A stretch of DNA of 62,337 nt, filler included, from Hausera hauseri (taxonomy: Eukaryota), in the NCBI GenBank assembly GCA_046269625.1. It is 12 parts of 12 records of this genome, joined end to end, with 100 filler letters (N's around TTAATTAATTAA, not from the genome) between each part and the next. Parts side by side here need not be neighbours in the genome. Positions count along the whole stretch, not along the records: positions 39,172 to 43,691 come from JBJURY010543119.1; 11 more parts are not named here. The stretch is one strand, 5' to 3'. Under the pieces are notes generated by a model. The model was given only the letters and a program-made list of their open reading frames with translations, made no database searches and was not told where the DNA came from. The first letter of the stretch is position 1. Every line of letters starts with the position of its first letter. Made by a program: the position numbers and the translations under genes. Positions 4,606 through 58,212 of the stretch are shown here, one piece after another.

Positions 4606-4607
4606 AG

Positions 4608-7186: not shown

Positions 7187-7251
7187 GTAAAATAAAAATA
7201 TTAGCTGTATAAAGATAAATATAACAAGAGATTGAGAAACAAAACAAATAA

Positions 7252-18907: not shown

Positions 18908-18999
18908 AGTGGTATTGAATATTTGTTTTTCGACTTTGTGAAGGAAATCAGGTGTTGTTTATGTGCATTGTAAAAGTCTTCATAATTGGTTTGGCACAC

Positions 19000-34730: not shown

Positions 34731-35984
34731 ACATTAAGAACTCTCCTAACTGTTGCAGGAAAACGGAAATTGGCTGTACGCCATTATGATATTCAGTCAG
34801 CTTACCTGAATGGTGACTTATGCCATGAAGTGTATATGAAGCAACCACCTAGATTTCAGGAAGATAAGAGTAAAGTCTGCAAACTCATGAAGAATCTATA
34901 TGGATTAAAGCAAGGAGCAAATGAGTGGAACCGAAAGCTCAATGAAGTTCTCCTTAAAAGTAAATTCCAAAGAAGTGAAAATGATCCATGCTTATACTCC
35001 AGGAAGAATAATGATGATTGCATATACATTACAGTTCATGTTGATGACATGGTTGTAGCTGGAACTACAGAAAGTTTGCTGGATGCATTCGAAAGGGAAA
35101 TGAATAAGTTTTTCATACTAAAGAACTTAGGAAATCTACAGTACTATTTAGGTATAAACTTTGAGCGTGATAAAGATGGTATTTTCTACTTAAATCAATC
35201 AACTTACATATCTAAGAAACTTAGAAGATATCGTCTTGAAGATTGCAAAACCTCAAGATTCCCTATTGATCCCGGATATTACAAAAGAAAAGATACCTCA
35301 GAAAATTTGGCAAACATCGAGGAATATAAAAGTGCTATCGGATCTTTGTTATACTTAGCTGTCAACACGAGACCTGACATAGCTACAGCAGTTTCAATCC
35401 TAGCTCGTAAAGTATCAAAACCAACTGAGATGGATTGGGTAGAAGTTAAAAGAGTATTTAAGTACCTGAAATTAACCAAAGACCTTAAATTGCGTCTCGG
35501 AAATGCAAATGACCAGAAAAGTGACTTGGAATGTTTCGTGGATGCTGATTGGGGTAATGACCCATCGGACAGAAAATCAAACACCGGTTACTTCTTCAAG
35601 TACCAAGGTAGCATCTTAACTTGGATAAGCAAGAAACAACCTTGCGTTACATTATCTTCGACTGAAGCGGAATTCGTCGCACTCGCGGAAGCCGCCAAGG
35701 AAGGGATATGGCTACAAAGGCTACTACAGGACTTTGAAGAAAAGATTACCAATTGCATTTTCTATGAGGACAATCAGAGCTGCATAAAGATGATAAGGAA
35801 TGAGAAGTGCAGCGGTAGAACCAAACATATCGACACCAGATACCACTTCGTTAAAGACTTAATTAAGGAAAAGAACTTTCAGTTGGAGTACCTGCCAACA
35901 GATCAGATGGCTGCTGACTTGTTAACTAAGCCACTAGGGACTAACAAACTTAAAGTATTTTCTAAAGCACTTGGGTTATGTTAA
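34731..35984 (+). CDS. Copia polyprotein, C-terminal part (RT, RNase H)
   Basis: DIQSAYLNG, LYGLKQ, VHVDDM, VDADWG, SSTEAEF, EDNQS, TKHID and ADLLTKPL. Confidence 0.95.
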   Translation, partial: TLRTLLTVAGKRKLAVRHYDIQSAYLNGDLCHEVYMKQPPRFQEDKSKVCKLMKNLYGLKQGANEWNRKLNEVLLKSKFQRSENDPCLYSRKNNDDCIYITVHVDDMVVAGTTESLLDAFEREMNKFFILKNLGNLQYYLGINFERDKDGIFYLNQSTYISKKLRRYRLEDCKTSRFPIDPGYYKRKDTSENLANIEEYKSAIGSLLYLAVNTRPDIATAVSILARKVSKPTEMDWVEVKRVFKYLKLTKDLKLRLGNANDQKSDLECFVDADWGNDPSDRKSNTGYFFKYQGSILTWISKKQPCVTLSSTEAEFVALAEAAKEGIWLQRLLQDFEEKITNCIFYEDNQSCIKMIRNEKCSGRTKHIDTRYHFVKDLIKEKNFQLEYLPTDQMAADLLTKPLGTNKLKVFSKALGLC

Positions 35985-36063
35985 GTTTATATTACTTTGT
36001 ATTATGTTAACCCATTAAGGTAAGTATTTGATTTTTGTATTAAGAATAAACATTGAGGAGGGG

Positions 36064-36256
36064 TGTTGAATATTACGACGCCTTACAATGTATATTCTTT
36101 GGCGCTGTGATCGCCTGGCGTTATGCCAAACTATTCCTTTTCCCCCCTCTCTCTGTCAGTCTGAAGTTGTCACTGGTATGTAACAGTTTATTCTCCACTA
36201 TTGTAATAAAATGCTTCGTTATAATATTTTCTTTAGAATATTTGCGTAACTCTACA
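36064..36256 (+). repeat. Copia LTR (193 bp, TG..CA)
   Basis: Starts TGTTGA right after the PPT GAGGAGGGG (36055-36063), ends TCTACA right before the PBS, and has AATAAA at 36205-36210. Confidence 0.88.
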
Positions 36257-36271
36257 GGTCATGGGCGCCAG
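36257..36271 (+). promoter_or_regulatory. Primer binding site of the half-molecule initiator tRNA-Met type
   Basis: GGTCATGGGCGCCAG closely resembles the Drosophila copia-type PBS GGTTATGGGCCCAG. Confidence 0.7.
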
Positions 36272-36402
36272 TGTTATAGCCCATTTTAATTATTAAAAGT
36301 TAATCGCTTTGTGTTTCATTTTATTGCGAACAGAAAGTTCATTTTTTTTCCTACTCCACGAACTTACTTCTCTTTCTCGCTGCGGTTGCATTGCCAGACA
36401 GA

Positions 36403-39071
36403 ATGGCGTCAAGCGGACTTCGTGAACGCTTTGAGTTAGTGAAACTGAATAATCGAAACTATTACACGTGGAAGTTTAAAGTCGAACTTTTGCTCATTAA
36501 AGAAGACTTGTGGCAAGTGATTGATAAAGAACAACCAACACCTGTTACTGAACAGTGGACCGCAAAGGATGGTAAAGCACGAGCGACTATCGGGCTTCTA
36601 GTGGAGGATAATCAACTCGGACTCATAAGGAAATTAACGACTGCTAAAGAGATGTGGACCGCTCTCGCGAATTACCACAATAAAAGTACTCTATCCAGAA
36701 AAGTCGGACTGTTAAAGGAACTTTGCTCTCTTCGATTATCAGAAAATGGGTCCATGGGGGACCATATAATGAAAATGGAGTCATTAATTGACCAGTTATC
36801 TGCGTTAGGTGAGAAAATCTCAGAACCCTTATTCGTTTCGTTTATGTTAAGCAGTTTGCCGGATGAATACGATACGCTCACAACTGCCCTTGAAACTCGT
36901 CCAGAGACTAATCTCACTGTTGAGCTGGTAAAAAGCAAATTAATAGCAGAGTTTAATCGAAAGAACAAAACTGAAGAATATCATAAAGTTATTGAGAATA
37001 AAGCTCTAAAATCTGCTAAAGCCGTTAATAATGCTTTTATGGATAAAAGAAAAGTTACAACTTGTTTCTTCTGTAAGAAAGTAGGTCACATAAAATCTGA
37101 ATGCATGAAATATGCAAAATGGAAACAGAAGAAAAGTAAAAATGAAACAGTAAATGTCACTAAAACTGACACTGCGGATAACACTGAATCAGAAGTAAGT
37201 GATCAATTTTGTTTTTCAAGTGCTCATTTTATGCAGAATTCTTGGTGTGTAGATAGTGGTGCCACTACACATATGTCAAATAATAAAAATCTGTTTAGTT
37301 ATATTGATGATAATGTATCTTCTGAACGTATTGTGTTAGCTAACGGTAAAGCAGTATTTAGCCAAGGTAAAGGCGACTGCTTAGTTAAATTCAAAAACGG
37401 AAACAATTCCTCTGAAGTGTCCGTTACAGTGAAAGATGTTCTATTTGTGCCAGATTTATCTACTAATCTTCTTTCTGTTAAGAAATTAACTGATAATAAC
37501 TTTGAAGTAATCTTTAAGGGCACAAACTGTCACATCGTTAAAGACGGTAAAATCGTCGCATCAGGCGGTATTATGGATAACTTGTACGTTCTTAAAGAAA
37601 GTGAACATGCTTTACGCACTAAACAGGTACATGCAAAATGTATTCATGATTGGCACATAAAGTTAGGTCATAGAAATTTAAGTGATATTTTACGCATGTC
37701 TAAAGATAATATGGCCGAAGATATGAAAATTTCTCCCTGCTTAGAAAATGTTGTTTGTGAAAGCTGCATTACGAGTAAATCATGCCGTGAACCGTTTCCT
37801 CAAAAATCTTTTTCCAAAACCTCTAAAATTCTCGATCTAATTCACACTGATTTGTGTGGTCCAATGCAAACTGTTACACCAGGCGGGGCAAAGTACATTC
37901 TAACACTAATAGATGATTTCAGTAAATACTGTAAAGTTTACCTTCTAAAGCGAAAGGAAGAAGTATTAAAGAATTTCCGCAACTTCCTTCAGGAAATCTA
38001 TACCCAATTTGGTGTAATGCCCAAGCGGTTAAGGTCAGATCGAGGAGGGGAATACACCGGTAAAGAGTTTGTGAAACTGCTGAAAGATAATGGTATCGTT
38101 CATGAAAAGACTGTACCATATTCACCACAGCAGAATGGTGTTGCGGAAAGGAAAAACCGTTCATTAATAGAGATGACTAGAGTAATGCTGAAGGAGTCTA
38201 ATCTTCCAAATAAATACTGGGGTGAAGCTGTTGTCACAGCAAATTATCTGCAGAATAGGTTACCAACTAATAATCTTAATTGCACTCCTTATGAAAAGTG
38301 GTATAGTAAGAAACCTTCTTTGTCACACATACAAGCTTTTGGAATCACCGCATATGTTCACGTTCCATCAGAACATCGGCGAAAGCTTGATGATACAGCT
38401 GTAAAGCGTATCATGGTCGGTTATGAGGAAGGCACTAAAGGATACAGATTATTAGACACGAATACAGATAAAATCGTCATCAGTAGAGATGTTACCTTCC
38501 TGCCAAAAGATCCCCACCCCAAGGTTACTTCTGAAATTGTTGAAATAGGATCAGAAAATAAGGACAATATAGTGACTGATACAAATTTTTCCGTAGATGA
38601 ATTACAAGGAGTACCAGTTAATGCTGAAGCTAGACGCTCAGAACGCTCAAACAAGGGTGTACCACCCGAAAGATACAATGTGTCGTCCTTCAAAGCTAAA
38701 TCCATGGAGACATCAGATCCTTCATGCTATGAAGATGCTTGTTCTGACCCAAATAAGGAACACTGGAAACAAGCAATGCAAGACGAAATTGATGCCTTGA
38801 AAGAAAATGGAACATGGATTTTGACAGATCCTCCTAATAATAAGGTCATTATAGGCTGCAAATGGGTATTTAAAACCAAAACAGACGGTGAAGGAAAGGT
38901 CTCACGCTACAAAGCCAGACTCGTAGCACAAGGATATCAGCAAAAATACGGACATGACTACGATGAAGTTTTCGCACCCGTAGCCAAGCCAACCACATTA
39001 AGAACTCTCCTAACTGTTGCAGGAAAACGGAAATTGGCTGTACGCCATTATGATATTCAGTCAGCTTACCT
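36403..39071 (+). CDS. Copia polyprotein, N-terminal part (gag, CCHC knuckle, protease, integrase, RT start)
   Basis: CFFCKKVGHIKSEC, WCVDSGATTHM, WHIKLGH..CESC, IHTDLCGP, RSDRGGEY, QNGVAERKNR and YKARLVAQG. Continues in frame through the overlap for 1281 aa in total. Confidence 0.95.
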
Positions 39072-39171: not shown

Positions 39172-40585
39172 ACACTTCCCTTAATTCCATTAGATGTGCT
39201 GATCACGTTGTTGAGGTGATTAGAATGTCAGCAATATATGATAACCCACGTACTCCTTTGAGGACGAAGCGGATAAATTCTTGAAAGAATGTTGGTGCAG
39301 TCTTCAATCCAAATGGCATGCGTGTAAATTGGTATACTCCGTTGTGTCTTAAAGGCAGTCTTCCATCGGTCTTTTTCTGCTACAGGTATTTGCCAGAATA
39401 CACTCTGTAGATCGAGCGTGGTGAAATGTTTGAAATCTTTCAATTCGCCTATGATATCTCGTATTCGTGGTATCGGATAAACATGATTTGCTAAATGTTT
39501 GTTCAATGTAACATAATATACGCATAATCTGTTTTGTAGTGTTAGCTTTCTTCGCCATAACTATTGGCGATGGCCATGGTGATTGACTTGGTTCAATGAT
39601 GCCTTTGTCCAACATGGTTTGAATTTGTTCTTCAACTTCTTTTTGGAGTGCTTTTGGAGGGGATACCATATTGGTGTAGGTTTCCTGAGGAGGTCTGTCT
39701 CATTCCCGGTTATAGGGTCAGTCATGAATGATAACTTAAATTCAACTAAATCAGTTTGTTCTATATCTGTTTCGTCTTTGGCAAAAATATCAGTGTATTC
39801 AAGAATGAGTTCCGAAAAATTACTTAAATATTCATCTGACAATTTTTTCTTCGCTTTTGCGAGAATAACATCGAACATATCTTCAACGATACTTTCTACA
39901 TTAGTGGAGGTGGCTGCGAGTTTACCGTCAAGTGGCTCATGTCGAATAGTTTTAAGCGCTTTTCCAAGCCTCATTTTTGTAAATAGTGTGATGTATTTCG
40001 GAGTCGGATTCAATACTTCAATAGGTATCGTTCCACCGGTTACATTGACGCAATAATGTGGTAATGAGTCTTCTGAAGAATTTTTGGTATGAACTCGATT
40101 ACGTGGTTATCTGGAAACATTGTCCTAGCGTGTATTACCACTTTAGAGTTGGGAGGGATTTTTTTAACATGTCTGTTTTATCATAATTGAACGGAAAATT
40201 CTTGTTATTGGGACAGATAGATCCTGATTGTAAGTTTATGTGAACTTCCAATTTTCTTAAAACATTCATTCCTATGATGCATCGAGGATCCAGGTTTGTC
40301 ATTACGTCAAAAGTTATTTTAACCCTTTGTCCACATATCATTGGTTCGCTTTTCCAATGTCCGTATGGTTTGCTGCGTTGCTCGAAGGCTGACGTGGTAC
40401 CTACAGCGTCTTTAGAAGCTAACTTTATTTGCGATTGCAGTTCGTCGGGAATTGCTTTATTTGCTATCAATTATATATTAGCTCCGGTATCTACCATTGC
40501 GTTTAAATCAAAGGTATTAAAATGGACGGTTGTATGTGGTCGATTGTCTCTTAGTTTGAGAAATATCAGCACATCATTGTGATCG
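39172..40585 (-). pseudogene. Degenerate Ty3/Gypsy protease plus reverse transcriptase (runs off the contig)
   Basis: AMVDTGAN (DTG at 40483-40491), IIGMN, GIIEPSQSPWPSPIVM, YPIPRI, FTTLDLQSVFWQI, KTAF, RMPFGLKTAP and YIAD. Stops and frameshifts present. Confidence 0.92.
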
Positions 40586-41259
40586 TCGATATGTGGTTCC
40601 ATCAAGGTGTAGTTGGATGCACAATAGTGAGTTTTTCCGTTAGGTAATATGACAGTTAAACTCTCTTGAGATTGAGTATCAATTTCCGTTTCTTTAGTCT
40701 TAGACTTGAGTTCGGTCAGATCTGAATAACAAACTTATGTGTCTTAAAGTTGTCTGTTCTTTGTTATTAGCTTCTGTTGTTATCGTAAGGTAATTGGATG
40801 TTCGATTAGACTGACTTTCTATGGTCTTGTTTGTTCGATCATAAGGTATCGGCGGCATGATACCTAGTTTAGGAGATAGAGGTAGTATTAATCGGTTTTG
40901 TTTCATTTTTTGTGTAACAACAGATTGAAGTATCTCTTCTTGAGAGTATTTGTGAATACTGCGTAGTCTCAGGTATTCCTCCTTCTTTGCAAAAGGGTCT
41001 TCTAACTCCAGTGAATCGAAATTTTTCGTTTCATAAAGTGCAGCTTGTAGTAGGTGTTTAAATTTTGACCTTTGTTTATCCTGTTCTTTGAATTTCATTA
41101 GATTAAGTAGCTTCCTTTTCTTTTTCATAGAGGTGCCATTTGTAGGATAATACCCAGTCGTTCCATCGTCGTCGGAACTTGAAGAAGTATTCTTGAGGAT
41201 TGTTTTGCCTGTCCTGTAATCCACATGTCTCTAATTTTATTCTCCATTGTTTTTCATGA

Positions 41260-43164
41260 TTGGCTTTGATAAATTTGCCAAATGGTGAGAATAGAGCACC
41301 GATTAAGTTCAGGGATAATCCTGTCAAGTTGTAAATCTCATGCGTTCAATACTGATTTGATACAAACGTTCAGTTTGCATAATGAAATAAATAGCCAGAA
41401 ATCCCGAAGCTATTGGCCGAATTTTAGGAATCCACCCCACATTTTGTACCAAAAATTTGAGACAATTTTCGTAGATGCGTTTGGAGTCCACAATCGATCC
41501 GACTTTCCTTCTCCAGCTGTATCGTCAATTACTCGATGTATCCCTCTATTTACCACCTGTTCACGTTGTCTGGGATAAGCTAAAAATTTTACAAAAGAAT
41601 CTATTTCCTTCTTGCTATATAGTGCCTATTTAGATACATCCGTGAACATATTTGTTTCAATGGCATGTCTTAGATTAGTCATGGTCAACTTCTTTGGTTT
41701 TTCCTTCACTCTATCTCGATCAGGTAAACGAACCCACAAATCTTGATTGTCGTACTTAATAAATGGTTTATTTAGTGCAGAGCAATTGTAAATCTCAGTT
41801 GGTATGGTGTGTGGTGCTAAAAGTACTCTCGTAATAGGTTGGACGTAACGGACTTCGTCATGGTATTTTACCGGTATTTCCGAATAGTATGGGGTGCCGG
41901 TTATCAAGGGCAGTTATAGTCTCTTGCATCGATATGTATACAGGACCTCTACTAGGACTCTACCGGGGATTCCTTCTCCGAACGGAAGGGTAATTGTTAT
42001 CATTTCGGGGTTTGACGCGTAAATGGCAAGTCGATTTCTTAGCGTCTCAAAGTTTACCTTGCAGAAATTTTGAATTGTTCCTGAATATACCTCTTCAATG
42101 GTTTTGTGTCAAGTAGAATAGAAAATCGTATCTATTGGCAATATAATCAGCAATGTTTACTACATGGGCTTTGTTGCTTGGTAAATTATCTGCTTCTTTC
42201 CTTTTCGAATATGAAATAATTTTCGTAGTTGGTGGTGAAAACTGGTTGTCCACATTTGGTAGTCAAATATTGTTGTATGAATTTAACTCCACCTTTTATG
42301 TCCTTAGATATTATTATTTTAGGAGTTTTTACTTCTGGAATTGTTTGCGTATTGGCATTTTCGAAATTAGTTTCGTAGTGTTGAGCATAACGCTTTCCTG
42401 TGTAACGTTGAATTCGCCATTCCGAATTTGTACTAATGTGCAGTCGTGACGTTTAGGCACTGTCCATATGATAGTGGAAGTTCTGGTGTGACAATATCCA
42501 GCTTCCAGTTTACAAAAGGAAACGTCCGTCACTGTGTTAGTGTTGGTTTCGAACATATAAGTATTTTCCTTAATTTCCACTTCGTATTGGTCGTGTACTA
42601 CGATGTTTCCTATAATACCTTTGCCTGTATCAAAATTACCTCCTCTACAATAACCTTTTTCATCCTTATGTCCAGCAATCTACTTTTCCTGTTGTGTTAT
42701 TTGACCTTTGATTGCTGTTAAAATCAAATCTCCCCATTTTAATTGCTGAGTGTCACCGGTATCTCGGCAACTAGATGGGTTTAGGGCACATATTTAGGTA
42801 TAGTTGTTGGTTGAATGTAGGAATCGTGATGCAAATGACCTCAATACGAGATAGTACGGGATTGTCGTAAGGAACATTCTAATCCTTTCATGTGGAGTGT
42901 AGTTTTATCATAGTAAATATATAGATTTTGTGTTGTGGTTTTCAGTTTCCTCGGAAGTGCATCCGGGCAGGACTGGAGATCCAATAGTGAATAATAGCTA
43001 TTCTCGTAAATTTTGTCACAATCATATGCCAATATTGTTCCTATCCTTTTAAAATTGGAAAATAATACTAGAATAAATACAAGAATTGGTATGAACAGTC
43101 CATTAGTCCTTGTTCCGTCCGTTTTCTGCATTTCTTCTCGGATTTGAGTTGACATTGTTTCCAT
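41260..43164 (-). pseudogene. Chuvirus-type (class III) envelope glycoprotein, disrupted
   Basis: Signal peptide then LAYDC..YSLLDLQSC, EC..Y[C]GHLHH, GYCRGG, CKLEAGYC..TIIW..C, YSEIPV..YVQPITRVL..C, LYS..FLAYP, FWYKMWGGFLKFG and hydrophobic C-terminal segments. This pattern matches chuvirus glycoproteins and their endogenous derivatives. Confidence 0.8.
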
Positions 43165-43791
43165 GAATATTGGAATTCTTTCTATGAAGAGTTTTGTGAT
43201 TTCAAGAATTGCTTTTTCTATTGTTTTTTTTCTATTTCTGGTTGATCTTCGTTTTTATTCCGTGAAAATAAGGTATTCCATTTACAATATTTGGGTATAA
43301 CTGATTTACTAACTTGAATTATTTTTCCTGTAGTAATTTTCAGATGAGATCAAAAGGAATATTATTTTCTCAAAATTTTTACGAGTGGGCGTTTCTAATA
43401 TCAACTGGGTGATATCTTCGGTCGTGAAATTCTTCCACTGAGAATTCCTTCTGAGTTCTTTCATAAATTTTAATTGTTCTTTGACATTTCTTCCATTTTG
43501 GAGAGTGGTTGTTAATCTGATCTTTGTCTATCTCAATGTAATATTGCTCTCTAACTAATTTCTTGACTTCTTTATATTCCTTATGAAGTTTTGGGGTTTC
43601 GTATTCCATTATCTGAGTAGCAAAATTCTCGGCAATTATTATAGTTTATTACGTTTACTTCGTTTATTTAGATCGAATAGGGTTTGGGCCANNNNNNNNN
43701 NNNNNNNNNNNNNNNNNNNNNNNNNNNNNNNNNNNTTAATTAATTAANNNNNNNNNNNNNNNNNNNNNNNNNNNNNNNNNNNNNNNNNNNN

Positions 43792-46203
43792 ACGTTTCAG
43801 ACAGCCATGGATATTATAACAATGGATGCTCCGCATATAATGTGTTATGTAGATGATGTAATAATTGCCTCAAGTGATTATAAGCAACATAAAGAGCATC
43901 TTAAAGATATGCTAGAGAGATGTGCCCTCCTTGGTATAAAAATAAGTTTAAAAAAATGTTGTTTTGCCAGAACAAAAGTGGATTTTTTAGGTCACACGGT
44001 TAGTAGAGAAGGAATTAGCCCACAGATTGGAAAAATTAATAAAATCCAGGATTTTCCGGTCCCAAAAACAGTAAGAGGAGTTCGAAAATTTCTCGGTCTT
44101 ACAGGATATTACAGGAAATTTGTTAAAGATTATCAACAAATAGCGTCCCCTTTACATTCGTTGCTACAAGAGAGCTCTAAGCTTGTGTGGACCCAGGAAT
44201 GTCAAAAAGCATATCAGCAATTAAAAGATAGTTTATTGGCCCCACCAATATTGGCTTATCCAAATATGTCTAAACCATATTTTTTGGCTACAGATGCAAG
44301 TAAAGTTGGAATAGGAGTTGTCCTATCCCAAAAAGATGATCAAGGATTAGAACATCCTATATCATTTGGAGGACGGAAATTGAGGAAGCATGAGAGAAAT
44401 TACTCTACAATTGAAAGAGAATTACTTGCAATCGTTTATGCTCTAGAGCAGTACGGACAGTATTTGTCGGAGACAAAACCAATTGTTATCTATACCGACC
44501 ATAAGCCACTACAATGGTTAAAAAGTCATAAGAATCCAAACAGCCGTTTGATGAAATGGGCAATGCTACTCCAACCTTATGACTTAAAGTTTGAATACAA
44601 GACTGGTAAAGCTAATGCAAATGCAGATTATATGTCCAGAATACCAGAAGATATGGATCGAGAAGAAGAAATAACGGATAAACCAGGTGTTATAGAAGCT
44701 ATTTGGAGCATCACTGAACATGAAAAATTACTACAACAAAAACAAGAAAATGATGAACAGATAAGACAAATTAAAGAATACCTCCAAAAGAAAATTATAC
44801 CAAAAGATGTCGACCTTTATACCCATTTAATAAGGTTTTTTGAAAATTATCAAATAAAGGATGGTATATTATACTATAACTACAAAGGAAAATTGACTGT
44901 TGTTGTTCCTCAGGAAGACGTGAAACTATTACTTACACAGTATCATGATGGCATGTTGGGAGGTCACCAGTCAAAGAAACGAACTCTGGGCAGATTGAAA
45001 AGAAAATATTATTGGTACAATATGAATAAAGATGTAGAAGAATGGTGCAGAAGTTGCCCCATTTGCGCTACAAGGAAAAATACTGGAACAAAAATCAAAG
45101 TCCCTCTCAAGCCATTAGAATGTCCACCGGCTCCTATGGAATTTTCGGCAATGGACATATTAGGACCATTACCAATGACGATAAACGGAAATAAGTATAT
45201 GTTGGTATTTGTTGATTTATTTTCCAAATGGCCAGTAGTAGTTCCGATACCAGATCAAAAAGCACAGACCATTGCACAAGCATTCGTTGAAGAGATTGTA
45301 TTTAATTACGGAGCACCTACTAAATTATTAACGGACCAGGCCCCAAACTTCACGGGAGAAGTAATGGCCGAGATATCGAAAATATTTCAAATATTACAAT
45401 TAAAAACCACCCCATACCACCCACAAACTAACGGAGCGGTCGAACGATTTAATGGAACCTTAACTAATATGTTAGCAACAATGGTTAATGAACGACAGGA
45501 TGATTGGGACGAATACATTAAACCCTGTTTGTTCGCTATCAGGAACACTATTCATCCAGCAACCAAAGAAACTCCATTTTATCTGATGTATCTTAGAGAT
45601 GCACACATGCCCATCGATTTGGATTTTAAGACACCAGTCTCACACTTAAAGGATATGGAATATCAAGAATTATTAGAAGAAAAGTTAGGTTATGTATGGA
45701 ATTTGGCTTCACGAAATATAAAAATATGTCAAAAGGAGTACAAAGACAGATATGATGAAAAAGCTAAATCTCACAAATTTAAACCTGGAGATAAGGTTAT
45801 GTTACATACACCTTTAAGTAAGAAAGGAAGAACTCCGAAATTGGACAGACCATATAAAGGTCCATATATGGTTCAAAAGGTGGACGAGACCAATATATAT
45901 TTAAATAAAAATAAGAGGAATAAAATGGATCCTATAAAAGTGCACGTGAATCGGTGTAAACCGGCACCACCAGAATCAAAAATAAGGAATAGAAATTCAA
46001 ATTTATTACTAATGACAACACTTATGATGTTAAGTCTAATAACTTGTGTATCAACTCAAGAATTAAAACCGATATTCCATAAAGTACAAGTTGGAAAATA
46101 CCCCTGCATACGAATATTTGGAAATCGAAACTTAACCGTCAACGATTATATTTATATATATATATATATCGAAAGTATCTACCTCGCGAAAAGTAATCAC
46201 TGA
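43792..46203 (+). CDS. Ty3/Gypsy Pol (5'-partial): RT, RNase H, integrase with GPY/F, then a signal-peptide-like segment
   Basis: YVDD, ATDAS, ERELLA, TDHKPL, HHCC, MDILGP/TDQAPNF/NGAVERFN and KGPY, with no internal stop. Hydrophobic LLLMTTLMMLSLITCVST at 46003-46056. Confidence 0.96.
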   Translation, partial: TFQTAMDIITMDAPHIMCYVDDVIIASSDYKQHKEHLKDMLERCALLGIKISLKKCCFARTKVDFLGHTVSREGISPQIGKINKIQDFPVPKTVRGVRKFLGLTGYYRKFVKDYQQIASPLHSLLQESSKLVWTQECQKAYQQLKDSLLAPPILAYPNMSKPYFLATDASKVGIGVVLSQKDDQGLEHPISFGGRKLRKHERNYSTIERELLAIVYALEQYGQYLSETKPIVIYTDHKPLQWLKSHKNPNSRLMKWAMLLQPYDLKFEYKTGKANANADYMSRIPEDMDREEEITDKPGVIEAIWSITEHEKLLQQKQENDEQIRQIKEYLQKKIIPKDVDLYTHLIRFFENYQIKDGILYYNYKGKLTVVVPQEDVKLLLTQYHDGMLGGHQSKKRTLGRLKRKYYWYNMNKDVEEWCRSCPICATRKNTGTKIKVPLKPLECPPAPMEFSAMDILGPLPMTINGNKYMLVFVDLFSKWPVVVPIPDQKAQTIAQAFVEEIVFNYGAPTKLLTDQAPNFTGEVMAEISKIFQILQLKTTPYHPQTNGAVERFNGTLTNMLATMVNERQDDWDEYIKPCLFAIRNTIHPATKETPFYLMYLRDAHMPIDLDFKTPVSHLKDMEYQELLEEKLGYVWNLASRNIKICQKEYKDRYDEKAKSHKFKPGDKVMLHTPLSKKGRTPKLDRPYKGPYMVQKVDETNIYLNKNKRNKMDPIKVHVNRCKPAPPESKIRNRNSNLLLMTTLMMLSLITCVSTQELKPIFHKVQVGKYPCIRIFGNRNLTVNDYIYIYIYIESIYLAKSNH

Positions 46204-48991
46204 ATCTTGTGATTTGTATGCAGGACATTCTAATCACATTTGTTGTGGTTTATCATATGGGATATCATACAGAATTCAATATTCCCTTACAAAAATAATA
46301 GAAGGAAAATGGTATACATCTTATTACTCGTTTCCAGGTGTGATATACTACTTCAGCAAACCCGATTTTCTTGTAACATTCTACACAAAAATTATGAAGA
46401 ACGGACCGTGTGTAACAGCCGAACCGGATCCCCCAATAACCAGATATCGAACAATCAAATACAAAATATTTAATGCAACCGATACAATAGAATGTAGACC
46501 CTTTTATCAAAATCCTTATTTATGTTGTTCTATATCCTTCGATAAGGAATATATGGTATGGTATTGGACAGGATTGATGACAGATCATGATTGGAAATGG
46601 TCGGATTTGTTAATAGGCCCAGAAGTAATAGTGAAATCATCAAAAATAATAATAACCTCTACTAGAGTAACAATGATTTCTACTATAAGTTCAATAACAC
46701 AGAAATCAACCAGAGCTATGAATATAATTAGAGAATTAGACATAACCGTACAGTCGACATCACACTCTCTCATCATCACTGTGTCAAATTTAAAGAATAC
46801 AAACATAAAATTTGAGTGTTTCCTTTATAATAAGATGGTCAGTGAAGGAATTATAACCCCAGAAGAACCAACAGCAGCATGTATGTTTTTAAAGGATGAT
46901 ACCCGTTATAAGGTTATTATAACAGAACTGGATGAGGACGGAAGAACTATACAGACAAATTATCGTTTAGAGAAAACTTTAAAACAAGTAAATACGCCAA
47001 CTATGAGAATTATAGAGATAGTAACTACACAACAAAACAATAAAAATACCGATAAATATTTTTGGATACTTGTTACAGTAAGTGTTTTACTAGTAATATT
47101 AGGTTTACTTTTGCCCCCAGTAATCTATTACTCTAAAGTTAGACGGCGACAACGTAAAACAAAAGAGATAATAAGACAATTAAAATTGTTAAGAGAAAAC
47201 TCCCAAGAAGAAATATCAGATAATATAGGCGCGCCTCCTTTAAACAATGATAATCGGCAGATTGCCGAACATGAATCGTTTGATAATAATGATTGTCAAG
47301 CTGTAAATTTGACTAGATATGAACGGCAAAATCATCCGTTAATGCCTACCGATGAGAATCGGAAAAATAAAAAGATTACCCGACAAGTGAGTCGATCCAC
47401 AAACGTAATTGTATATTATTGTACAGTGGTACAAGACAAGGCCGTTGAAATTTTTACGACCTACCATAATTATAAATCAAATAAACAAATTTACAGTTAT
47501 AAACCATTTCTAAATCTTTTCTGGTTAATATTAATTTGTTTCTTTTTAGTTCAAGAAGGTTCAGAATCAGTCGACAGAGTAAAATCATTTTACTTCAATA
47601 TCATCAATAATATCAATCAGACCACTGAAAAGGATTACATGTATTTCGGAAAAGCCAGCCTCATCCCAAATAACTTAAAAGGTCATTTAGTAGATCAGAG
47701 AGCTGGACTAATCATCAAATTACCAAATGCATCGACAAAACTTTCGGACCTTATCGACATCTCTAGCCGCACAACCTCTGTCTATATATCAGTAGCAAAA
47801 GAAAAGTTACAGTTGAAAAGCAGAGCCCACCTGAATGAGTTTACAGATATTCTCGAAGTTCCCTCATTTTCGACAGTTAGACTGGACAAGCGGTTTTACA
47901 AGAATGTTACGATCATATTACGTGCATGTGGAGGACAATCCCCAATTATATATATCGAAGTGACTCGCAGAGAAAACTTACCTGAAATAGAGTACGAAAA
48001 ACCCCTATACCCTGCTAACCTACCAAACCGAGAACAATTGGTATCGGGAATGTCTTTCTGCCGATTGCCGACAGTAAAAGAAAATAGAATAAATATCGTA
48101 GCGGTTAATTCCGCATACTTGTTAACGCCACTACGACACAAAGAAACAACACTGATAGAAATAACTATTATGGATTTGCAGGGAAATATTATCCTCGATG
48201 AAGTAATCACTCCGAGAAACAGAATTGATAACTATAATAGCCAGATTACAGGATTGAAGGAAGTGGATATACAAGGACAGATGGATGCCTACCAAATAAG
48301 ACCTTTAATCAGACAAAAACTTAACGGAAAACTTATCGTTGGAATGGATGTGTACAACACTAACTTGCAATTGGATTTGGTTGATAGTAACGCCATTCAC
48401 GGTATTCGTGATTTGCAGCATCATTCCGAAATAAACCCGGAAAGAAAGCTTACCCAAAAACAAATTCTTATGAAGTATAATGATATAGTCTATCCCCTCC
48501 GTACCCGAGAAAAAGCCCTTGTAATGCTGAAAGTTTACAAATCGATCCTTGAATATAAAACAAATACTGATACCTACAAACAAAAACAATCCGATGAACG
48601 AGAATCAACTATGAAAATTTATTCTGAAAATGAACAGTCTTCAGTCTTAAAAGAAACTTCACAACAGATCATATCAAAACCTCTTTCTAATACAATTCCT
48701 GAACCAATGGACACTGATAAAACCCCAGAAATCACCATTTTGGATCAACCAACTACTAGTGAAACAGTTGCTACTATCAATTCGGACGACTCTATCACAA
48801 TTGACCTCACGAAAACTAAAAAGAAAAGATCAACTCGTGAAACAGTTACCCTGAAAAAGAAAATCCGGAAGGGCAATCAGTGGTTGCGGTTAGATTCCGC
48901 TAATTACCGATATGCGAACGGAATCTTGGAAACCTACCCTCTGGCGCTGAGGACAACGCCATCTGAGGAGGGAGGTGTTGATACCCAATAA
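46170..48991 (+). CDS. Extra retroelement ORF (about 940 aa): Cys-rich ectodomain, S/T stalk, FN3-like domain, TM1, second hydrophobic segment, inactive DEDDh (REX4/ISG20-like) exonuclease fold
   Basis: TM1 at about 47057-47131 followed by KVRRRQRK. Hydrophobic segment at about 47507-47551. 48090-48545 has ITIMD..GNIILDEVITP..IDNYNSQITGL..IRQKLNGKLIVG..IRDL, typical of REX4-like nucleases. The ORF ends inside the LTR. Confidence 0.8.
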
Positions 48992-49052
48992 CCAAGTTAC
49001 AGGCCATGTGATATTACAATCGATCAGAATGACCGACATATTTATTTTTGTC
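48965..49052 (+). promoter_or_regulatory. Polypurine tract (48965-48975) and start of the 3' LTR (TGTTGA at 48976)
   Basis: GAGGAGGGAGG is directly followed by TGTTG. Confidence 0.75.
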
Positions 49053-49791
49053 NNNNNNNNNNNNNNNNNNNNNNNNNNNNNNNNNNNNNNNNNNNNTTAA
49101 TTAATTAANNNNNNNNNNNNNNNNNNNNNNNNNNNNNNNNNNNNNNNNNNNNCAACAACGTGCCATTGTCGATTGTAGTCACGCCACTTCTAGTGATCCA
49201 CAAATTATCAAAGTCCAATTACGTTACGTAAAATGTTTCATTGATTTACAGCATCTACATAAAAGAAAAATTTGTACAATTGATCTCATCATTAATCTAA
49301 TCAATCTCAACAATAATTCTAATTCGTTATTGAAAAAGTCGACGACAAACGACAATGGTCATAACTTTTCTTTGAAATTGAATTATTCATCAAAATTAAT
49401 TGAATTATATCCGTTTTACAAATTATACATACGCAGAGCTACTGTTTTATTTTTACCAAACGAATTTAAACAATCATTAAGTGATTCAAATGAAGTTCTA
49501 AAAGCATACGTAAATTCCAGCAGGCTTCTTCCCAAAAAACGACACATTGTTCATGTAACTACTCATTTGGCTTATATAGAGTGTAAAATACAACAATGTA
49601 CTTCGAAAAATAGCTCCTGTGACTACATTGTCGAACAAAACGATATATACAAAGAGAACAATTACTCCGAATTTGAGCAGACCAAGCATTGCACCCATCA
49701 TTTACACAATATATGTAATACAATAATTTAAACTTTTCCAAAAGGTACACAAAACAATATAATTTTTATATTTTCCCAAACACAATTAATA

Positions 49792-50060
49792 GTGACCGGG
49801 CTTAAGATCACATTGGAAAATGAAACGACAGCAACAAATAATCCAGTTGAAGAATACATGTATGAAATACTCAGCCCGGGAAAAAAGTCTATCACATTCG
49901 AACAAACGGAAACAACAGCTATCAATCTGGTATCAGCATTCAACCCAAACAATCTTCTATTAATGTACCAAATAATTAATTGTATTTTAAAATTCCTAGA
50001 CAAAAACATGGAACCTGGTACGATTCTAATTTTTCCCTCGATTTATGAACATTTAATTAA
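49792..50060 (+). pseudogene. Possible DEAH-box helicase fragment
   Basis: IINCILKFLD..PGTILIFPSIYEHL resembles the GAILIFLPGYDEI motif. This is a single motif only. Confidence 0.3.
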
Positions 50061-50452
50061 CTTATTATTATTGATTATTCTTTCTACAAAAATAGGCGAG
50101 TCAAGCCTCATCATATACTATATTTCTCATATCATAGATTATATTAAAATATCAAGAAATTCTATGACACTGTTACTGAGAGAAACAAAACACAAGCTGA
50201 ATCACTCTGGCCTCTTAATCTGGAACTTAGTCCGAAGATGGTCGAAAGAGATAACTTACCTATCCGTATTTCATCATTCATAAATGATTTGTTTGAGGGA
50301 TCGAGCGTTCCCGCCTCCGTTGCGCCATGTCCCCTTTCTTTTTTTATTTTTTCTAATCATAAACATATCCACACATTAAGGGTTACACACACACACAAAC
50401 ACCTCATTCTTTATACTGAATTGTACTCTTCGGTTTTTCTGATTTTTACCTT

Positions 50453-53400
50453 ATGCACAACGGTCTAGTTCTGCAACCTTACGATTCTCTTCCATTCTTT
50501 GCACACGAGAAATATTCCATCACTCTCACTGTCAATTTTCGCATCCGTGGTGGATCAGACCTTGATCCTTCTTCCGAGCACTTAACAAAAACTAGATCAG
50601 GCCGTCGTTCTGTCGATCCTACACCAAATATATTTCCCAATCTCCCATGCACGGACTTCTTTTTAGATAAGACGAATTCTAGTCGTACCTGGCTGCAGTT
50701 CCACTTGCAATGGCTAAAAGCCAATCATATTACAGATCCTTTTTTGCGGGCTAACAGTTTACTGCTGCTACTGCCAGCCAACATCAAACAGCAGATCAGT
50801 AATCTGGCTGACATACTCTTTTCTTCAAGCCCATATGATATGCTGTACGAGCCGGTTCTACATATCACCGACCCTTCAATCGACAGCACAATCCAGAAGT
50901 ACTTTAAGGAACACGCTATTGGAAATCAAAAACCATCAGATTTCCTTAAAACGGCCATTTCACAACTGAGCTATTTAGGCGTGACTCCGACGAACAATGC
51001 TGATCTTCTTCGTCGATACTTTCTCTTATCTCTGCCAACCTCCATCCGAGCGTTGCTTACTGTAGTAGATGACTCTACTGCCCTCGAAAAGCTCGCCTTA
51101 TTGGCAGACAAAAGCTTCGATATTCTGCAGTTCAATAACTCGCAGCCTGTAGAGGCAGCAACTGCTCATATACCACCAGACAACACGTTATTTGCTTAAA
51201 AACTAAACATAATGCAGAAACAATTCGATACCCTACAACAAGCAATTTCTGCAATTACGGCCCGACTTAGTGACATATCTGTGCCTCGAGGGAGCGAAAA
51301 TCGCATTTTTCGCGATCGCAGTTTGTCTAGGCACTCGTCTTGTTCTAAATCCAGAGAGGGTAAAATGGCGTGTTTCTATCACAACAAATTCCGCAGAGAT
51401 GCACAGAAATGTGTTTTAGGTTGTCGATTCTACGATGCACGATATGCCATAGACAATCCAATCTGCATCTATCACGCAAAGTACCAGTCCAAGGCTAGCT
51501 CATGCGTGTCAGGATGTAAATGTTATAAAAGGAATTCTAGTTCTCCATTTTCTTTGCCTCTGCGCACTCACTATTCCTCCTCTTCCTACCAACAAGTCTC
51601 AAAAAACCAATAATGCCGCCAGATGCCACGGCACATTCTGGTACAGGCAATATCGTTCAAACTACTGGCCATTTCAACACCGCATCTGCAGTCTTTCTGT
51701 TGAAAGCTGATCTGTTATTTGAGGACACATCACACGTAGATTTCCTTATTGATTCAGGAGCTGCTTTTCCACTTCTTCCTTTGTCTTTTACTCCTACATC
51801 TAACACAGTTATGTTTCCTCCACTCTTCACTGCCTGTGGTCATCCTTTGAACATTGTAGCTACCACAAAGCTGTCCTTCTCATTCTACAACCTACCAGGG
51901 AAATTTTCCTGGAATTTTCACATAGCAAACATCAAATCGCCCATAATAGGCTCCGATTTCTTGGCTGCATACGATTTGTTAGTCGACTGCAAGCATAAAT
52001 GCCTCCTGCGCAGAAACTTCATTGCAAACTCTACCAAATGCTCACCAAACTACCAGTCGGACACTTTGTCTTCCTCTGCTCATTCAAATGTCAATTTGAC
52101 ATCCTGTTCATCGGTTGACAACAACACGCTTAACATTTCATCTATATTTTCAATCTCGTCAAGTGGGAACAAATCAATTTTGAAACATTCGGCTGAACCA
52201 AATGTCGTTAATGAAGCATCTAGTCTTTCTACATCGATTACAGCAACTGACTCTTATAATGATATGCCATCATCATTCTTATCGTTAGATTCTGACCTTA
52301 AATCCTACATTAAGACTTCTTGTTCCCGCACTCTTAAGAAGGACATCAATTTCAAACCGCATTCTGCAACATATCATCACATAGTCACCGAACACCAAAG
52401 ACCTATTAGACAAAAGGTCAGACCACTGTCACCTCGCAGACGAAAAGCTGTTGAATCTGAGTTCAACGAACTCGAAAAGGCGGGCATGATCCGACGATCC
52501 AAATCACCATGGGCTTCGCCTTTGCATGTTGTGACGAAGAAAGATGGCACATACAAACCATGCGGTGATTATCGGCAATTAAATAATCTAACAGTCATGG
52601 ATGCTTATCCTTTGCCGCTCATAAACGACATGCTGCACAGCCTTACCAACACTGATACGTACTCCACAACTGACTTGCATAAAGCATATCATCAAATACC
52701 TGTTTCACCTAATGATATTCCAAAAACTGCTATTATCACTCAATTTGGCCTCTACGAATATATCTTTATGCAATTTTGTTTACGTAGTGCCTCTCAAACT
52801 TTCCAATGGCACATTGATACTGTACTCTCAGGCCTTGACTTCGCTCATCCATATATTGATGACATATTAGTTGCCTCCACATCCGTCAAACAACATCAAT
52901 AACACCTTCGTATTATCTTTCACAGATTACATCACAGCAATTTGCAAATCAACTTCTCCAAGTGTCATTTCTTTCAAAAACGTATAAATTTCCTAGATCA
53001 CATCATCACTCCTCACGGCCACTCTCCACAACCGGATCGACTGCAACAATTGAAGAACATAACTCTACCAACGACTACCACGGATATGAGAAGTTTTTTA
53101 GGCACACTCCACTTCATCTACAAATACGTACCTCATTGTTCTGAGCTTACAGCACCTTTTGTAAATTTGTCATCCGGAAGAAAGAGTCAGTTGATACACT
53201 GGACTCCTGGTTTAGTCACCAAGTTTGATCACTTACGCGATGGCCTAAAAACCGTCTAAATATTGGCCTATCCAAAGCCCAACGCAGATCTTATGCTTAC
53301 CACCGATGACTCGATCACAGCCACCTGCGCAGTACTACACCAAATTTCCAACGGGGCTGATGAACCATTAGAATTTAACTCTAGGAAGCTTACACAACCT

Positions 53401-55135
53401 GAAAGCCGTTATTCAACATTTGACCGTGAGTTACTCGCCATAGTTCTGGCAGTAAAACATTCTAAACACTTATTTCTCTCTCGTCCATTTGTGATTCAAA
53501 CTGATCACAAGCCTGTCCTGCACATCATGTTGTTAAAACAGCCATCGCCGAGGCAAGAAAGACATATATCATACCTGTCTACATTCAGTTTTGTTTTGGA
53601 ATACATCTTAGGAACAGATAATTTGGTAGCAGATTTTCTATCAAGGTCGGTTGGCTCCATCACAGTTGAGCCGATGTTTTTATCCGAAGTGTTAAAGGCA
53701 AATCTACCGTCTGCTGACTTTCTTAGTTCCTTCAAATCTTTCGAGATCATAGATGGCATTGCTTATGATACGTCAAACACCGGTAATAAAAAGGTCCTTC
53801 TAGCACCACCTTTACAAAAGCCAGCTTTCGTTCGTACGCATTCCATCTATCATCCGGGTTCGAAAGCAACCTTTCGCCTGCTACAACGTTATGTAGTTTG
53901 GCCATCAATTAGCAAGGATGTACAGGGCTGGGTTAAAGAATGCATAGCCTGTCAAAAATACAAAATCAACAAACACCTTAAACCGCAGCTGTACCATTTT
54001 TCTTGCACATCACGCTTTCACACAATTCATCTTGATCTCGTTGGCCATTTACCTGCTGATAACGGATATCAATATATCCTTACTGTAATGGATCGTGCTT
54101 CTCGCTGGCCTAAAGCCGTTCATCTTCGTTCAAAACACTGATTCAGTAGCTGATGAATTTATAAAAATATGGATCAGTCGTTTTGGTTCCCCACGTTAAA
54201 TAATAACGGATCAAGGTCCACTATTTAAATCGCTTGTAAAATACCTGGGGATATCCCATCTCCACACAACTCCATATTATCCTCAAGCAAATGGCCTTCT
54301 TGAAAGGTTCCATCGAACAATGAAAGTTTCTTTAAAAATCTTGGCTGACACTCATTTCAATTGGACGTCCATTTTACCATTTGTTCTACTAGGGTGGTGC
54401 AACACACTTTCTACCACTACCAATTGTGTTCCAGCCGCGGCACTCTTTGGGACTCCAATTTGAGCCTTATTTGAACTTTCTGATCTGGACGACAACCCCA
54501 CAGACGAAAACATTCGTGCAGCACAATCTCACTTCGTCGAGGTCAGCTTAGATTCATTCTGTCGTCTCTTTAACAAAAATCCTATATTCCGAAGGACTTA
54601 TACTCCGCCAAGTTTGTGTGGCTGAAGGATCAATCGCCTTCTGGTTTTAGACTTCAATATGTTGGCCGATACAAACTGCTGAATCTTTTATCTCACATAG
54701 CAACCATCTTACACCAAGATAAACCTTACAACGTTAATATTCGAACTTGAAGCCCGCTTTCTTCAATGGCGATATTCCAGATACCAATTCTACCTCCAAC
54801 TCAAACTCAGATAGCACTGCTACCGATTTTCTAAATGATTTTACATCACCTACAATTGCATCGCCTTTTTTGCTTTACTCATCTTCGCTATCATCTCCAT
54901 CACAAAATATCACTCAACAGCCCAGCACAAATCCATCAAGTAAGGTACGCAGAGTGACATTCAATACGTACAGCAGAGAAAAGTTCTTTGATGGCACACA
55001 ACGCTTGACCCGCACTAAAACCGAATAGGCACCGAACATTGTTCCTTTTGCAACTCATCGTTTTCAACCATCTTATCTTCATCATTCTTTTTCGCCTTCA
55101 CATCGTTTTTTTGCTATGGGGGGTGATGTGGTGCC
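50453..55135 (+). mobile_element. Near-full-length degenerate CsRn1-like Ty3/Gypsy element (gag, PR, RT, RNase H, integrase, PPT)
   Basis: Gag with GNQKPSDFL..LALLADK and CHCC knuckles, FLIDSGA, SPWASPLHVV, CGDYRQLN, YIDD, RNase H and integrase motifs. In-frame stops at 51197, 52900 and 53257 and others. PPT GGGGGG at 55118-55123, then TGTGG at 55127. No matching LTR pair seen. Confidence 0.94.
51601..51641 (+). promoter_or_regulatory. Putative -1 ribosomal frameshift signal between gag and pol
   Basis: A-AAA-AAC in the gag frame just before the gag stop, pol in the -1 frame, and complementary blocks downstream. Confidence 0.65.
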
Positions 55136-55673
55136 ACGATCGCGGGCACAGCTCGTTTTCTTGCCAGAATACTGATCGTCAATCTCCATTTTTTGAAAAC
55201 ATCTCCAATTTCTCTCATTCAGTGGAAATTGCAATCTCTCCGACATGTGACTCTTTCAGAATCATTTATCAAATCGTTTATCAAATCAAACGATAAAGGA
55301 CTATCATTTGTTGAATCATCACCAAATGAACTTTCCATCATTCTATTTACAACGTCGTTTCAATAAATGGTTACGTCACTTCGCACATCTACAATGTTCC
55401 TTTCTAATAGACAGTTCAGTTAGGCTCACATCTAAATCTACGAGACTTCTCTCCTGAAAGGCAGTGCAAAATATAGACATCCTTTTGATATTATTGTTAA
55501 TATGATAGACACGATATAAAAATTGATTAAATTACAGTATTGATAGTTTTAAATTTGAAAAAAATACAAATTTTTACTATTATTGGATTTATTTTTCTAC
55601 GACTTATTATCAACAAAACAATTAGCACAAAATCCATTATCAATATTAAATGAAGTAGATACAAACGAGGGAA

Positions 55674-56121
55674 ATGATAGTAGTAGTAATAGCAGTAGGG
55701 TCGCTTCATAACATTGTTAATGAAACACCAGATATTAATCTTTTACATTTATCCCTTCTGGCAGTCCAAAATCCTTGGGAATCAGGAGCCAGTAATCCCC
55801 ACCGAGTATCACGGGGACAATATCTAAATACTAGAACCCGGCAACTAGCACGGAAGATTAAGAACCAAAAACTGCAGTGCCGCACACGATATGAAGTACT
55901 TATAGTAACTGTGGATGGATTAAGAATAAGACAACGTCAGAAAGACGATAGCATTCGGCAATTAGCAGGGGAAATACAAGATGTTCCTTATCAAATACAA
56001 AACTCATTAGCATTACAAGCATATATTGCAGATAATAGTAGAAGATTGGAAGAACTTGAAGAACAACTCATATGGAACGAGAATTTACTGATGATACGGC
56101 GCAAATACACGAATTACAACA
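55674..56121 (+). CDS. Uncharacterised coiled-coil ORF, 3'-partial
   Basis: About 150 open codons to the contig end with heptad-like RLEELEEQL. No family recognised. Confidence 0.3.
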
Positions 56122-58212
56122 NNNNNNNNNNNNNNNNNNNNNNNNNNNNNNNNNNNNNNNNNNNNTTAATTAATTAANNNNNNNNNNNNNNNNNNNNNNN
56201 NNNNNNNNNNNNNNNNNNNNNTAAAAAAAGAATAGTACGATTTTCCTAAGTGCACCCTAGACCATGACTTTTGGAGAACTTCGATTTTTTATTGACTGTG
56301 CGGGTTAGCATCACTCCAATAACGATAATTGTGGCGATGAACAAAACCATAAAAAAACAATGATGCATCTGAAAATATAACATTGAAACCAAAGTTATGG
56401 TCCTAATTAAATCTAGCTAATGCCCATTCACAAAACTGCATTCTGTGATCAAAGTCCCATCCATCCAATTGCTGATGCATTTAAACTTTAAACGGATGAA
56501 ATTTAAAGATTTTTAACACTTTATAAACTAGATTTAAAAACGCCATATTGTTGAGCAACAGATCTTGTCGTATTGTGCGGATTAGCTGCAAATGATGCAA
56601 GGATATTTGTTGACATCTCGTCGTTACATACAGATTTCGCACGACCAATTCTTGAGGAATCAGAGACGTTTCGGGAACAAAATCGCGAATACGACCTCAA
56701 AACTGTTGCATGAGTTGGCCTTGGTATTTAAGGGTGGCTTTCATGGAATTGATCTCAAGTAATTCGACTGTTATTATCATTTCTAATAAATAATTGAATT
56801 AACTCGATTCGATGAGCTAAGCAAAACTTAGGTGGTATTTCAACAGTAAATAATACGAATGATAAGATTAAACAAGATTTATACCTCCATAACAAAAAAA
56901 CATACGACCGTGAGTAGGTAGAAAATGCTAAGTCTGCACCATCCCCGGAGGTGTGCGAATCGATAAATCAATTTGCACATGTGCCAATCGGTAGTGCACA
57001 TGGAGCACAATCAATCGGTAATGTGCAATTAAAATTGAAATCGATCGAGTGGATTTCGAATAATATCGATCCAAAGTGCAACTGGTGCAGACTTCCCATA
57101 GTTTTTTAGGTCCCAAAGAGTCAAAATTCGACAAATGTTTCAGCGGGAACGGATAGGAAGTGTCACATTGTAAGCCGGGTCTTCCATCTCAGATTTCCGA
57201 AATTCCGTGCACAACTCGAATAAGTATTGATTTTCACCGAATAGTATTGATTATCTTGACACCCATAAATTTTTTGAAAAATCTGAGAACGCCAGTCGAT
57301 TCCCCATGTTTTAATGCATCTATATAGCACTACAAATGTGTCGCACATGTGCAAGTGTGCATTAATCAATAATAACGGTTTTCCGATAAAACCTTTGAAG
57401 TTGATTTTAGCACACAGGCAAGTGGAAATCGAAAAATGTAAAAGCGTACACAAACTAACATGTGCTGTATTCGATTATGAAGTCAGATATTCGAAAACTC
57501 GAAAATAAGTCGAACTTTTCGAATAATTGATTTTCTATTCGAATAGAAGCAAAAATCGAAAAATCTAAAAACGTAGAGGGATAGAAACCCATATATGGAG
57601 AATCCGAATATGACGTCAAATATTCGAAAAGAGGCTTAAATAAAAAGCTGATTTTTCGATCGAATTCGAATAGTACTATCGGATTCCCCATGTCTGAAAA
57701 CCTTTGTAGACCAAAAATATGGTGTGCTGTGTTTGGAACAGTCTCGAAATGAATAAAACATTGAAAAATCCGATAATATTCGGTCAAGCATGCATTATTG
57801 GAACAATCTGATTACTCCATTCGATTGTATGAGAACCTATTTAGTACCCAAGTGCATTTACTTTATTTGATGCATTAATACGAAGTGTTCTAGAATGTTA
57901 AAAAATTCAAAATAAAAAAAAATCCATGAGGCAGTATGCGTCGATATTACTGTTTCATTATTTACAAAACCCCTTCTAGGAATGGTGAGGTTTTTATTTG
58001 TGCTCCTCAAATAATTGGTTGATTTTTAGATGTGCAATCTATACAAACAATGCTTGGCTCAAATCCACGAGCCTGAAAATTGCCACAATAATATGCAGAA
58101 AAACTTTAGCCATCTATACAACAGGGTAGTGTGCCAGACTAAATATGAAGACTTACATTGCCCATAAACAACACCTGCTTTCCTTCACCAAGTCGACAAA
58201 ACACTGCGAATA

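Follow-up and report, generated by a model that had tools for sequence, protein, structure and literature searches.

A decayed Ty3/Gypsy fragment from Hausera hauseri with a class III fusion glycoprotein upstream of pol is very probably a divergent member of a known gag-env-pol kind of retroelement

In this work, we analysed a 62,337-nucleotide (nt) stretch of DNA from the Hausera hauseri assembly GCA_046269625.1, hereafter the window, which consists of 14 contigs with N spacers between them, and focused on positions 39172-43691, which are exactly one contig of 4,520 nt. The results obtained make it very probable that this contig comes from the interior of a long terminal repeat (LTR) retroelement of the Ty3/Gypsy class and the gag-env-pro-pol type, which died long ago and belongs, or is close, to the lineage that includes the Burro elements of planarians and the Schmidtea errantiviruses. 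According to Pfam, tblastn and profile searches, the env gene, encoding a fusion glycoprotein (G), lies immediately upstream of pol on the same strand. An earlier interpretation made from the DNA alone (the sequence-only reading) had proposed a new architecture that arose by independent capture of G in a Gypsy lineage. Neither proposal was supported: the env-before-pol architecture is not new, being in print since 2019 and already present in the available text of PMC6431247 and PMC13524379, and independent capture is not established, the trees described below being unrooted. Thus, the element is very probably a dead, divergent new member of a known gag-env-pol kind.

The domain order itself is as the sequence-only reading had it. 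On the minus strand, six of the 14 pieces of the contig submitted to Pfam matched three families (PF24664, RVP and RVT_1), and the Pfam and profile matches followed one another in the order G, open spacer, protease, Gypsy reverse transcriptase (RT). The contig is colinear by tblastn with five database proteins (P0001, P0005, P0012, P0038 and P0071) over G and RT, and in P0001, P0005 and P0012 over the protease as well. The Ty3/Gypsy class is assigned from the RVT_1 match and the likeness to Gypsy RTs, that is, from similarity and the domains of the relatives, no BEL/Pao or retroviral RT serving as an outgroup. RT is truncated by the contig end, while RNase H, integrase, gag and the LTRs are off the contig; its ends are artificial joins, so that the flanking DNA is uninformative on the ends of the element. 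A search of the contig, both ends of which fall within coding sequence, revealed no LTR-like repeat, in line with the absence of an LTR between G and the protease that had been claimed. A single, guessed primer-binding-site pattern gave two matches vs. 1.8 expected, which is the chance level, and no tRNA genes were found in the window.

The data on relatives clearly show that this order is real. A phmmer search of 1.84 billion representative proteins with one frame of G (stops as X) returned 169 matches, of which the best 150 were listed, and Pfam was run on 18 of these, picked mainly by length. In eight of the 12 best matches (P0001, P0002, P0004, P0005, P0007, P0008, P0010 and P0012), G continues into an aspartic protease, thus indicating that G and the protease-RT part are normally adjacent and that the order is not chimeric. 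Six proteins carry G, protease and RT in a single chain, namely P0001, P0005, P0012, P0038, P0071 and P0177, the last of which came from the RT search rather than from the G search; a single original polyprotein, as suggested earlier, is therefore most likely. In the first five of these, the chain extends through RT to RNase H, and the relatives bear the Gypsy-type RT-RNase H-H2C2-integrase domains. A protease-RT profile matched 12 proteins among the best 150 of the 169, being C-terminal to G in 11 and N-terminal in one, and additional weak Pfam protease matches were found in P0010 and P0084. The G-to-protease layout is present in at least 13 database proteins that are unnamed or mislabelled, one of them being filed in a bacterial genome bin. 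P0001, a complete G-pol retroelement polyprotein, bears the source label of hypothetical protein, and the bin it was filed in is assigned to Flavobacteriaceae. Its gene takes up 7.9 kb of the 9,084 nt of its contig, which leaves little room for a spliced gene model; most likely, it comes from a eukaryotic contig that strayed into a bacterial bin and was called without splicing.

The relatives also tell where gag should be sought. CCHC knuckles were found upstream of G in five of the 13 long proteins examined, and therefore the order in relatives is gag-env-pro-pol, the gag of the window element probably lying just off the contig; P0023 has in addition a weak Retrotrans_gag match (residues 79-173, E-value 2e-4, below the curated cut-off). 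The lack of gag between G and the protease, correctly noticed in the sequence-only reading, follows from the position of gag upstream of G in relatives. The distances agree as well: the membrane region and the protease DTG motif are separated by 316 codons in the window vs. 131-391 in 12 relatives, and DTG and the RT YxDD motif by 418 codons vs. 401-433 in nine relatives. Tandem protease-like domains, two to four in number, follow G in P0002, P0004, P0005, P0007, P0008 and P0023, with one more after the integrase in P0005. Signal-like and membrane segments after the integrase of P0001, P0005 and P0038 suggest a second membrane protein within the same polyprotein. A word-based search for longer relatives with a G frame piece yielded none among 470 candidates, and residues 370-1200 of P0001 used as a query retrieved only P0001 itself. 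No G relatives were found in phage records or, by sequence, among solved structures, where only weak matches to the DDI1 protease appeared.

The glycoprotein of the window is near complete but broken. PF24664 (Monjiviricetes fusion glycoprotein) matched three single-frame pieces in profile order, at 43086-42811 (E-value 6e-7), 42787-42437 (7e-8) and 42102-41365 (1e-27). A profile built from 11 unbroken relatives was matched over columns 5-597 of 648 by four significant frame pieces, with a non-significant tail to column 632, and it is this coverage in separate frames that leads to the above conclusion. At least four frame changes and, in the pieces counted, five in-frame stops were found in G, so the copy is decayed and makes no functional protein, in agreement with the earlier description of it as dead. 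Sequencing error is an unlikely source of these breaks: in-frame stops stand alongside frame changes, and other contigs have open frames of 800-950 codons. Directly before the AYDC motif there is a hydrophobic stretch which, judging by its sequence and position, is most likely an internal signal sequence, equivalent stretches being found in P0001 (368-386), P0005 (131-149), P0010 (541-559), P0038 (350-368) and P0071 (525-543). The sequence-only reading had described a signal peptide and a complete G at 43164-41260. The hydrophobic stretch and a near-complete G were found indeed, but translation probably did not begin at the ATG at 43164, because the frame there remains open to 43254 and the relatives hold the same stretch internally.

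To place G, two unrooted trees with unnamed rows were built. In the careful tree (36 rows, one frame), the window G grouped, with support of 99/97, with eight proteins: six are G-protease polyproteins, and the other two (P0003 and P0006) are shorter G proteins devoid of a protease. The quick tree (134 rows) agreed, with a value of 95 in the Shimodaira-Hasegawa-like approximate likelihood ratio test, and put the window apart from stand-alone G proteins of about 650 amino acids; 17 of the 150 matches were left out of it for short coverage, and in its automatic labelling P0038 was not recognised as a G-protease protein. As regards a Chuviridae endogenous viral element, the window G was found to nest with retroelement polyproteins instead. 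The five proteins that, among the listed 150, best match five Schmidtea errantivirus ENV motifs are P0002, P0004, P0005, P0006 and P0007 (6-8 of 9 residues); they resemble the Schmidtea ENV rows by eye, the link being one of motifs and visual comparison. A fold model of P0006 (predicted local distance difference test score 80) matched herpesvirus gB (E-value 2e-13) and the G of chuviruses, xinmoviruses and rhabdo-like viruses (best E-value 1e-40 at 21% identity, range about 16-21%), and its likeness to gB and chuvirus G makes it a class III fusogen. Together with the PF24664 match on the window itself, these comparisons support the assignment of the window G as a chuvirus-related class III glycoprotein. 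Of the chuvirus-type origin claimed earlier, this kinship is retained, but a chuvirus is no more than a candidate donor, since the viral structures at about 16-21% identity include xinmo- and rhabdo-like ones.

The segments on either side of G behave differently in simulations. The spacer between G and the protease contains a 176-codon open frame equalled by none of 2000 simulated sequences, so the coding spacer that had been claimed is real, and overlapping open frames fully tile the junction. The longest frame upstream of G has 88 codons and was matched by 65 of 2000 simulated sequences, which gives weak support for coding; the short open reading frame described there earlier does exist, but it is one of several overlapping frames and gains little from this test. 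This upstream region probably corresponds to the variable part of the polyprotein that separates gag from env. A candidate reading of the spacer as a short gag, by analogy with a mite ENV-GAG-POL element, was rejected: there is no gag match in it, gag is upstream in relatives, and the mite env is of the F type in the available part of PMC13524379. The linker between the protease and RT matched no Pfam family; in Burro, the same position is called dUTPase-like in the text of PMC6431247 available.

Placing RT was more difficult. Compared with 39 Gypsy RTs in alignments of up to 144 columns, the window RT is 34-47% identical. A recombinant, in which the G of the gag-env-pol lineage was joined to the pol of a different Gypsy lineage, would keep the same order with a separately acquired env. 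It finds some ground in that the window RT falls outside the well-supported G-bearing pol clade in every free tree, that the window spacer is longer than those of 11 of 12 relatives and matches none of them, and that GAG-ENV-POL elements are not monophyletic in pol, as far as PMC13524379 is available. On the other hand, six of the seven most identical RTs come from the G-bearing clade, which makes up only 12 of the 39 references; eight of the top 15 protease-to-RT tblastn scores belong to this clade, represented by 13 of the 123 proteins; the RT constrained to this clade gave a tree no worse than the free one (approximately unbiased (AU) test, p 0.516); and decay by itself lengthens the RT branch. 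We therefore regard recombination as improbable. The RT phylogeny proposed as a check in the sequence-only reading leaves the window RT an unplaced long branch.

Still less credible is an accidental adjacency, by nesting, deletion or misassembly, of a stand-alone chuvirus-like viral element or another element's env and an unrelated Gypsy pol. Only a single copy was seen, and in arthropods Jingchuvirales G fragments flanked by fragmentary Gypsy sequences, with no clear capture, are described in the accessible part of PMC10084718. However, the window G groups with polyprotein-embedded rather than stand-alone G, open frames tile the entire junction, the contig has no repeat or LTR-like feature, and the spacings between G and pol match those of the relatives. 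A BEL/Pao element of the Anakin type, or a G derived from one, can practically be dismissed: although the Pfam family is the same and P0140 carries, just before its G, DUF5641, which we take to be a mark of BEL/Pao elements, pol follows G instead of preceding it, the relatives have the Gypsy-type domains listed above, and the grouping of the window G with the DUF5641-linked P0140 (a stand-in, not a named Anakin) and its sister P0105 was rejected (AU p 0.0004, the group having been named after the first tree was seen).

Several observations weigh against assigning the contig to the Burro/Schmidtea kind of element. By phmmer, the window G and its best relatives share only 30-36% identity, the YQESDF-type motif of these proteins is absent from the window G itself, and the fold model was made from P0006, not from the window's own protein. 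No gag match was found within the 600 nt available upstream of G, and these 600 nt gave no credible Pfam match, no Atlas match and no match to the upstream regions of 11 relatives, although a region that matches nothing is as expected for the variable gag-env interval. Likewise, the spacer matched neither Pfam, nor Atlas, nor the spacers of 12 relatives. The window RT is a long branch placed by none of the three trees. No second copy of the element was found: the word-based search was null and the scans of genome contigs were empty, those for the DNA loci of relatives giving 21 and 59 pattern matches with none confirmed. Finally, for most such elements the mode of transmission is unknown according to the available text of PMC13524379.

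Comparison with known systems allows us to define what is shared. The available part of PMC6431247 (2019) describes Burro, a giant Gypsy element of planarians, with env in frame between gag and pol, presents it as the first such case, and reports that Burro env matches fusion glycoproteins of arthropod and fish mononegaviruses. Burro/GYPSM1 and the window element have in common a long protease-RT linker and, probably, a single polyprotein in which env follows gag and precedes pol (PMC6431247, same text). Furthermore, P0006, a close G relative, has a weak Bcl-2 match just before G (E-value 0.001), as Burro does. In the window, no BCL2-like match was found with a three-sequence profile in the short region upstream of G; the comparison with Burro was by description. 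GAG-ENV-POL Ty3/Gypsy elements with a gB-type ENV in Nematoda, Bryozoa and Platyhelminthes, and 114 Gypsy elements whose glycoproteins are homologous to the chuvirus-like G of BEL/Pao, are reported in the accessible text of PMC13524379. The Smed_errantivirus_1-6 elements described there have the same fusogen class and probably the same gene order, and their six rows share domain I-II motifs with the nearest G relatives of the window. Those Schmidtea elements are intact, with up to 215 copies according to the same text, whereas the window copy is dead and its nearest database relatives in G are distant. The nematode and bryozoan ENV rows available in that paper are, by eye, unlike the G relatives of the window. 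A flipped ENV-before-POL order in a nematode metavirus is also mentioned there, with reference to Sacco et al. 2022. These non-canonical endogenous retroviruses are alike in having ENV before POL; they are nematode-restricted by title, and their ENV, unaligned, seems by eye to be of another subfamily. The nematode ENV-POL is reportedly one continuous reading frame. Anakin elements, that is, mosquito BEL/Pao elements with a chuvirus-related glycoprotein (PMC7642597, in its available part), share such a glycoprotein in an LTR retroelement but are BEL/Pao, not Gypsy, and the window G stands apart from the DUF5641-linked G. The window element by name was not met in the literature searched, Repbase being outside the comparison.

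Judging by the domain layout and by general polyprotein processing, the living element would have made one polyprotein. Its Gag portion would have been kept in the cytosol, the internal signal sequence would have directed the glycoprotein ectodomain into the endoplasmic reticulum (ER), and the membrane anchor would have brought the chain back to the cytosol. The element protease would then release protease, RT-RNase H and integrase, and host signal peptidase would free G, so that these two enzymes would set Gag, G and Pol apart; G may then trimerise as a gB-like fusogen on budding particles; by analogy with Drosophila errantiviruses, the outcome might be cell-to-cell spread. A bolder proposal, which we consider doubtful though worth stating, is that the contig marks a deeply divergent and so far undescribed branch within the gag-env-pol lineage of single-polyprotein elements, its host not being a triclad flatworm or its pol having a separate origin, and that across this wider lineage the polyprotein passes repeatedly through the ER membrane. 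The post-integrase segments of P0001, P0005, P0038 and the contig at 43792 point to a possible second surface protein beside the fusogen; if this were true, processing would be more like that of an RNA-virus polyprotein than of a retrovirus. To return to the assignment preferred here, to the gag-env-pro-pol elements of the Burro/Schmidtea kind, it confirms that the diversity of Gypsy elements with env before pol in a single polyprotein exceeds that of the few with names. The lineage bears on the origin of enveloped retroelements and on whether class III fusogens passed from negative-strand RNA viruses to retroelements or the other way. A single dead fragment adds little to this, and the intact planarian copies are a far better system.

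Table 1. Features of the 39172-43691 contig and of two other contigs of the window with related pol parts.
Feature	Position	Strand	Basis
Entire contig, very probably from the interior of a decayed Ty3/Gypsy element of the gag-env-pro-pol type, both ends cut	39172..43691	-	contig limits and colinear tblastn
Overlapping open frames upstream of G, no family	43102..43691	-	open-frame map
Hydrophobic signal-like stretch directly before the AYDC motif	43051..43101	-	sequence; same position in relatives
Broken fusion glycoprotein of class III (gB/chuvirus type), with a membrane region at the C-terminus	41232..43092	-	Pfam PF24664, profile map and fold of relative P0006
Coding spacer between G and protease, no family	40549..41231	-	open frame of 176 codons (41230-40700)
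Aspartic protease (retropepsin) with DTG at 40491 and a single stop in frame	40201..40548	-	Pfam RVP 40548-40237, E-value 1.2e-9; pol profile columns 3-110
Protease-RT linker, homologous to the linker of G-bearing relatives	39660..40200	-	pol profile from column 145 at 40121
N-terminal part of Ty3/Gypsy-type RT, three frame pieces, degenerate catalytic motif, cut by contig end	39173..39657	-	RVT_1 (Pfam pieces 39506-39336 and 39343-39209) and pol profile
RT end, RNase H, integrase	43792-49052	+	pol groups with the G-bearing clade, 91/90; top nine blastp matches all from this clade
RT end, RNase H, integrase	21810-26001	-	75% nucleotide identity to the 43792 contig over pol

Elsewhere in the window, most contigs consist of eukaryotic repeats (Gypsy, Copia and a long interspersed nuclear element), with MutS, RING and TSP1 pieces besides. 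By their sequence, the 3' parts of pol at 43792-49052 and 21810-26001 fit the same lineage as the element described here. The 43792 contig was rejected as its continuation: the two overlap in RT with a clearly different sequence. It belongs to a different element, with long and open frames; pol is followed by a frame of 951 codons (46136-48991), which contains hydrophobic segments as well as a stretch that looks exonuclease-like by eye and gave no Pfam match at cut-off, and a further signal-like or membrane segment follows the integrase.

Two contigs, 1-7086 and 49153-56121, are related Gypsy pol fragments with 72% identity, the former bearing also a stop-interrupted MutS-like gene at about 3164-6432. 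A near-intact Copia element with gag, integrase and RVT_2 lies at 34731-39071 (plus strand); the first and last 77 nt of this contig are identical, which may reflect overlapping ends in the assembly of a form that is circular or tandem. The contigs at 17767-21709 and 56222-62337 are related to each other (70-79% identity), with degraded frames and no Pfam match in the frames tested; by eye, they look like Polinton/Maverick-associated genes. At 7187-11380 (minus strand), a non-LTR retrotransposon with an endonuclease and an 801-codon RT frame adjoins AAT-rich repeats. Finally, a 225-nt inverted repeat at 14973-15435, 94% complementary with a 13-nt loop, is possibly a miniature inverted-repeat transposable element or a foldback element.

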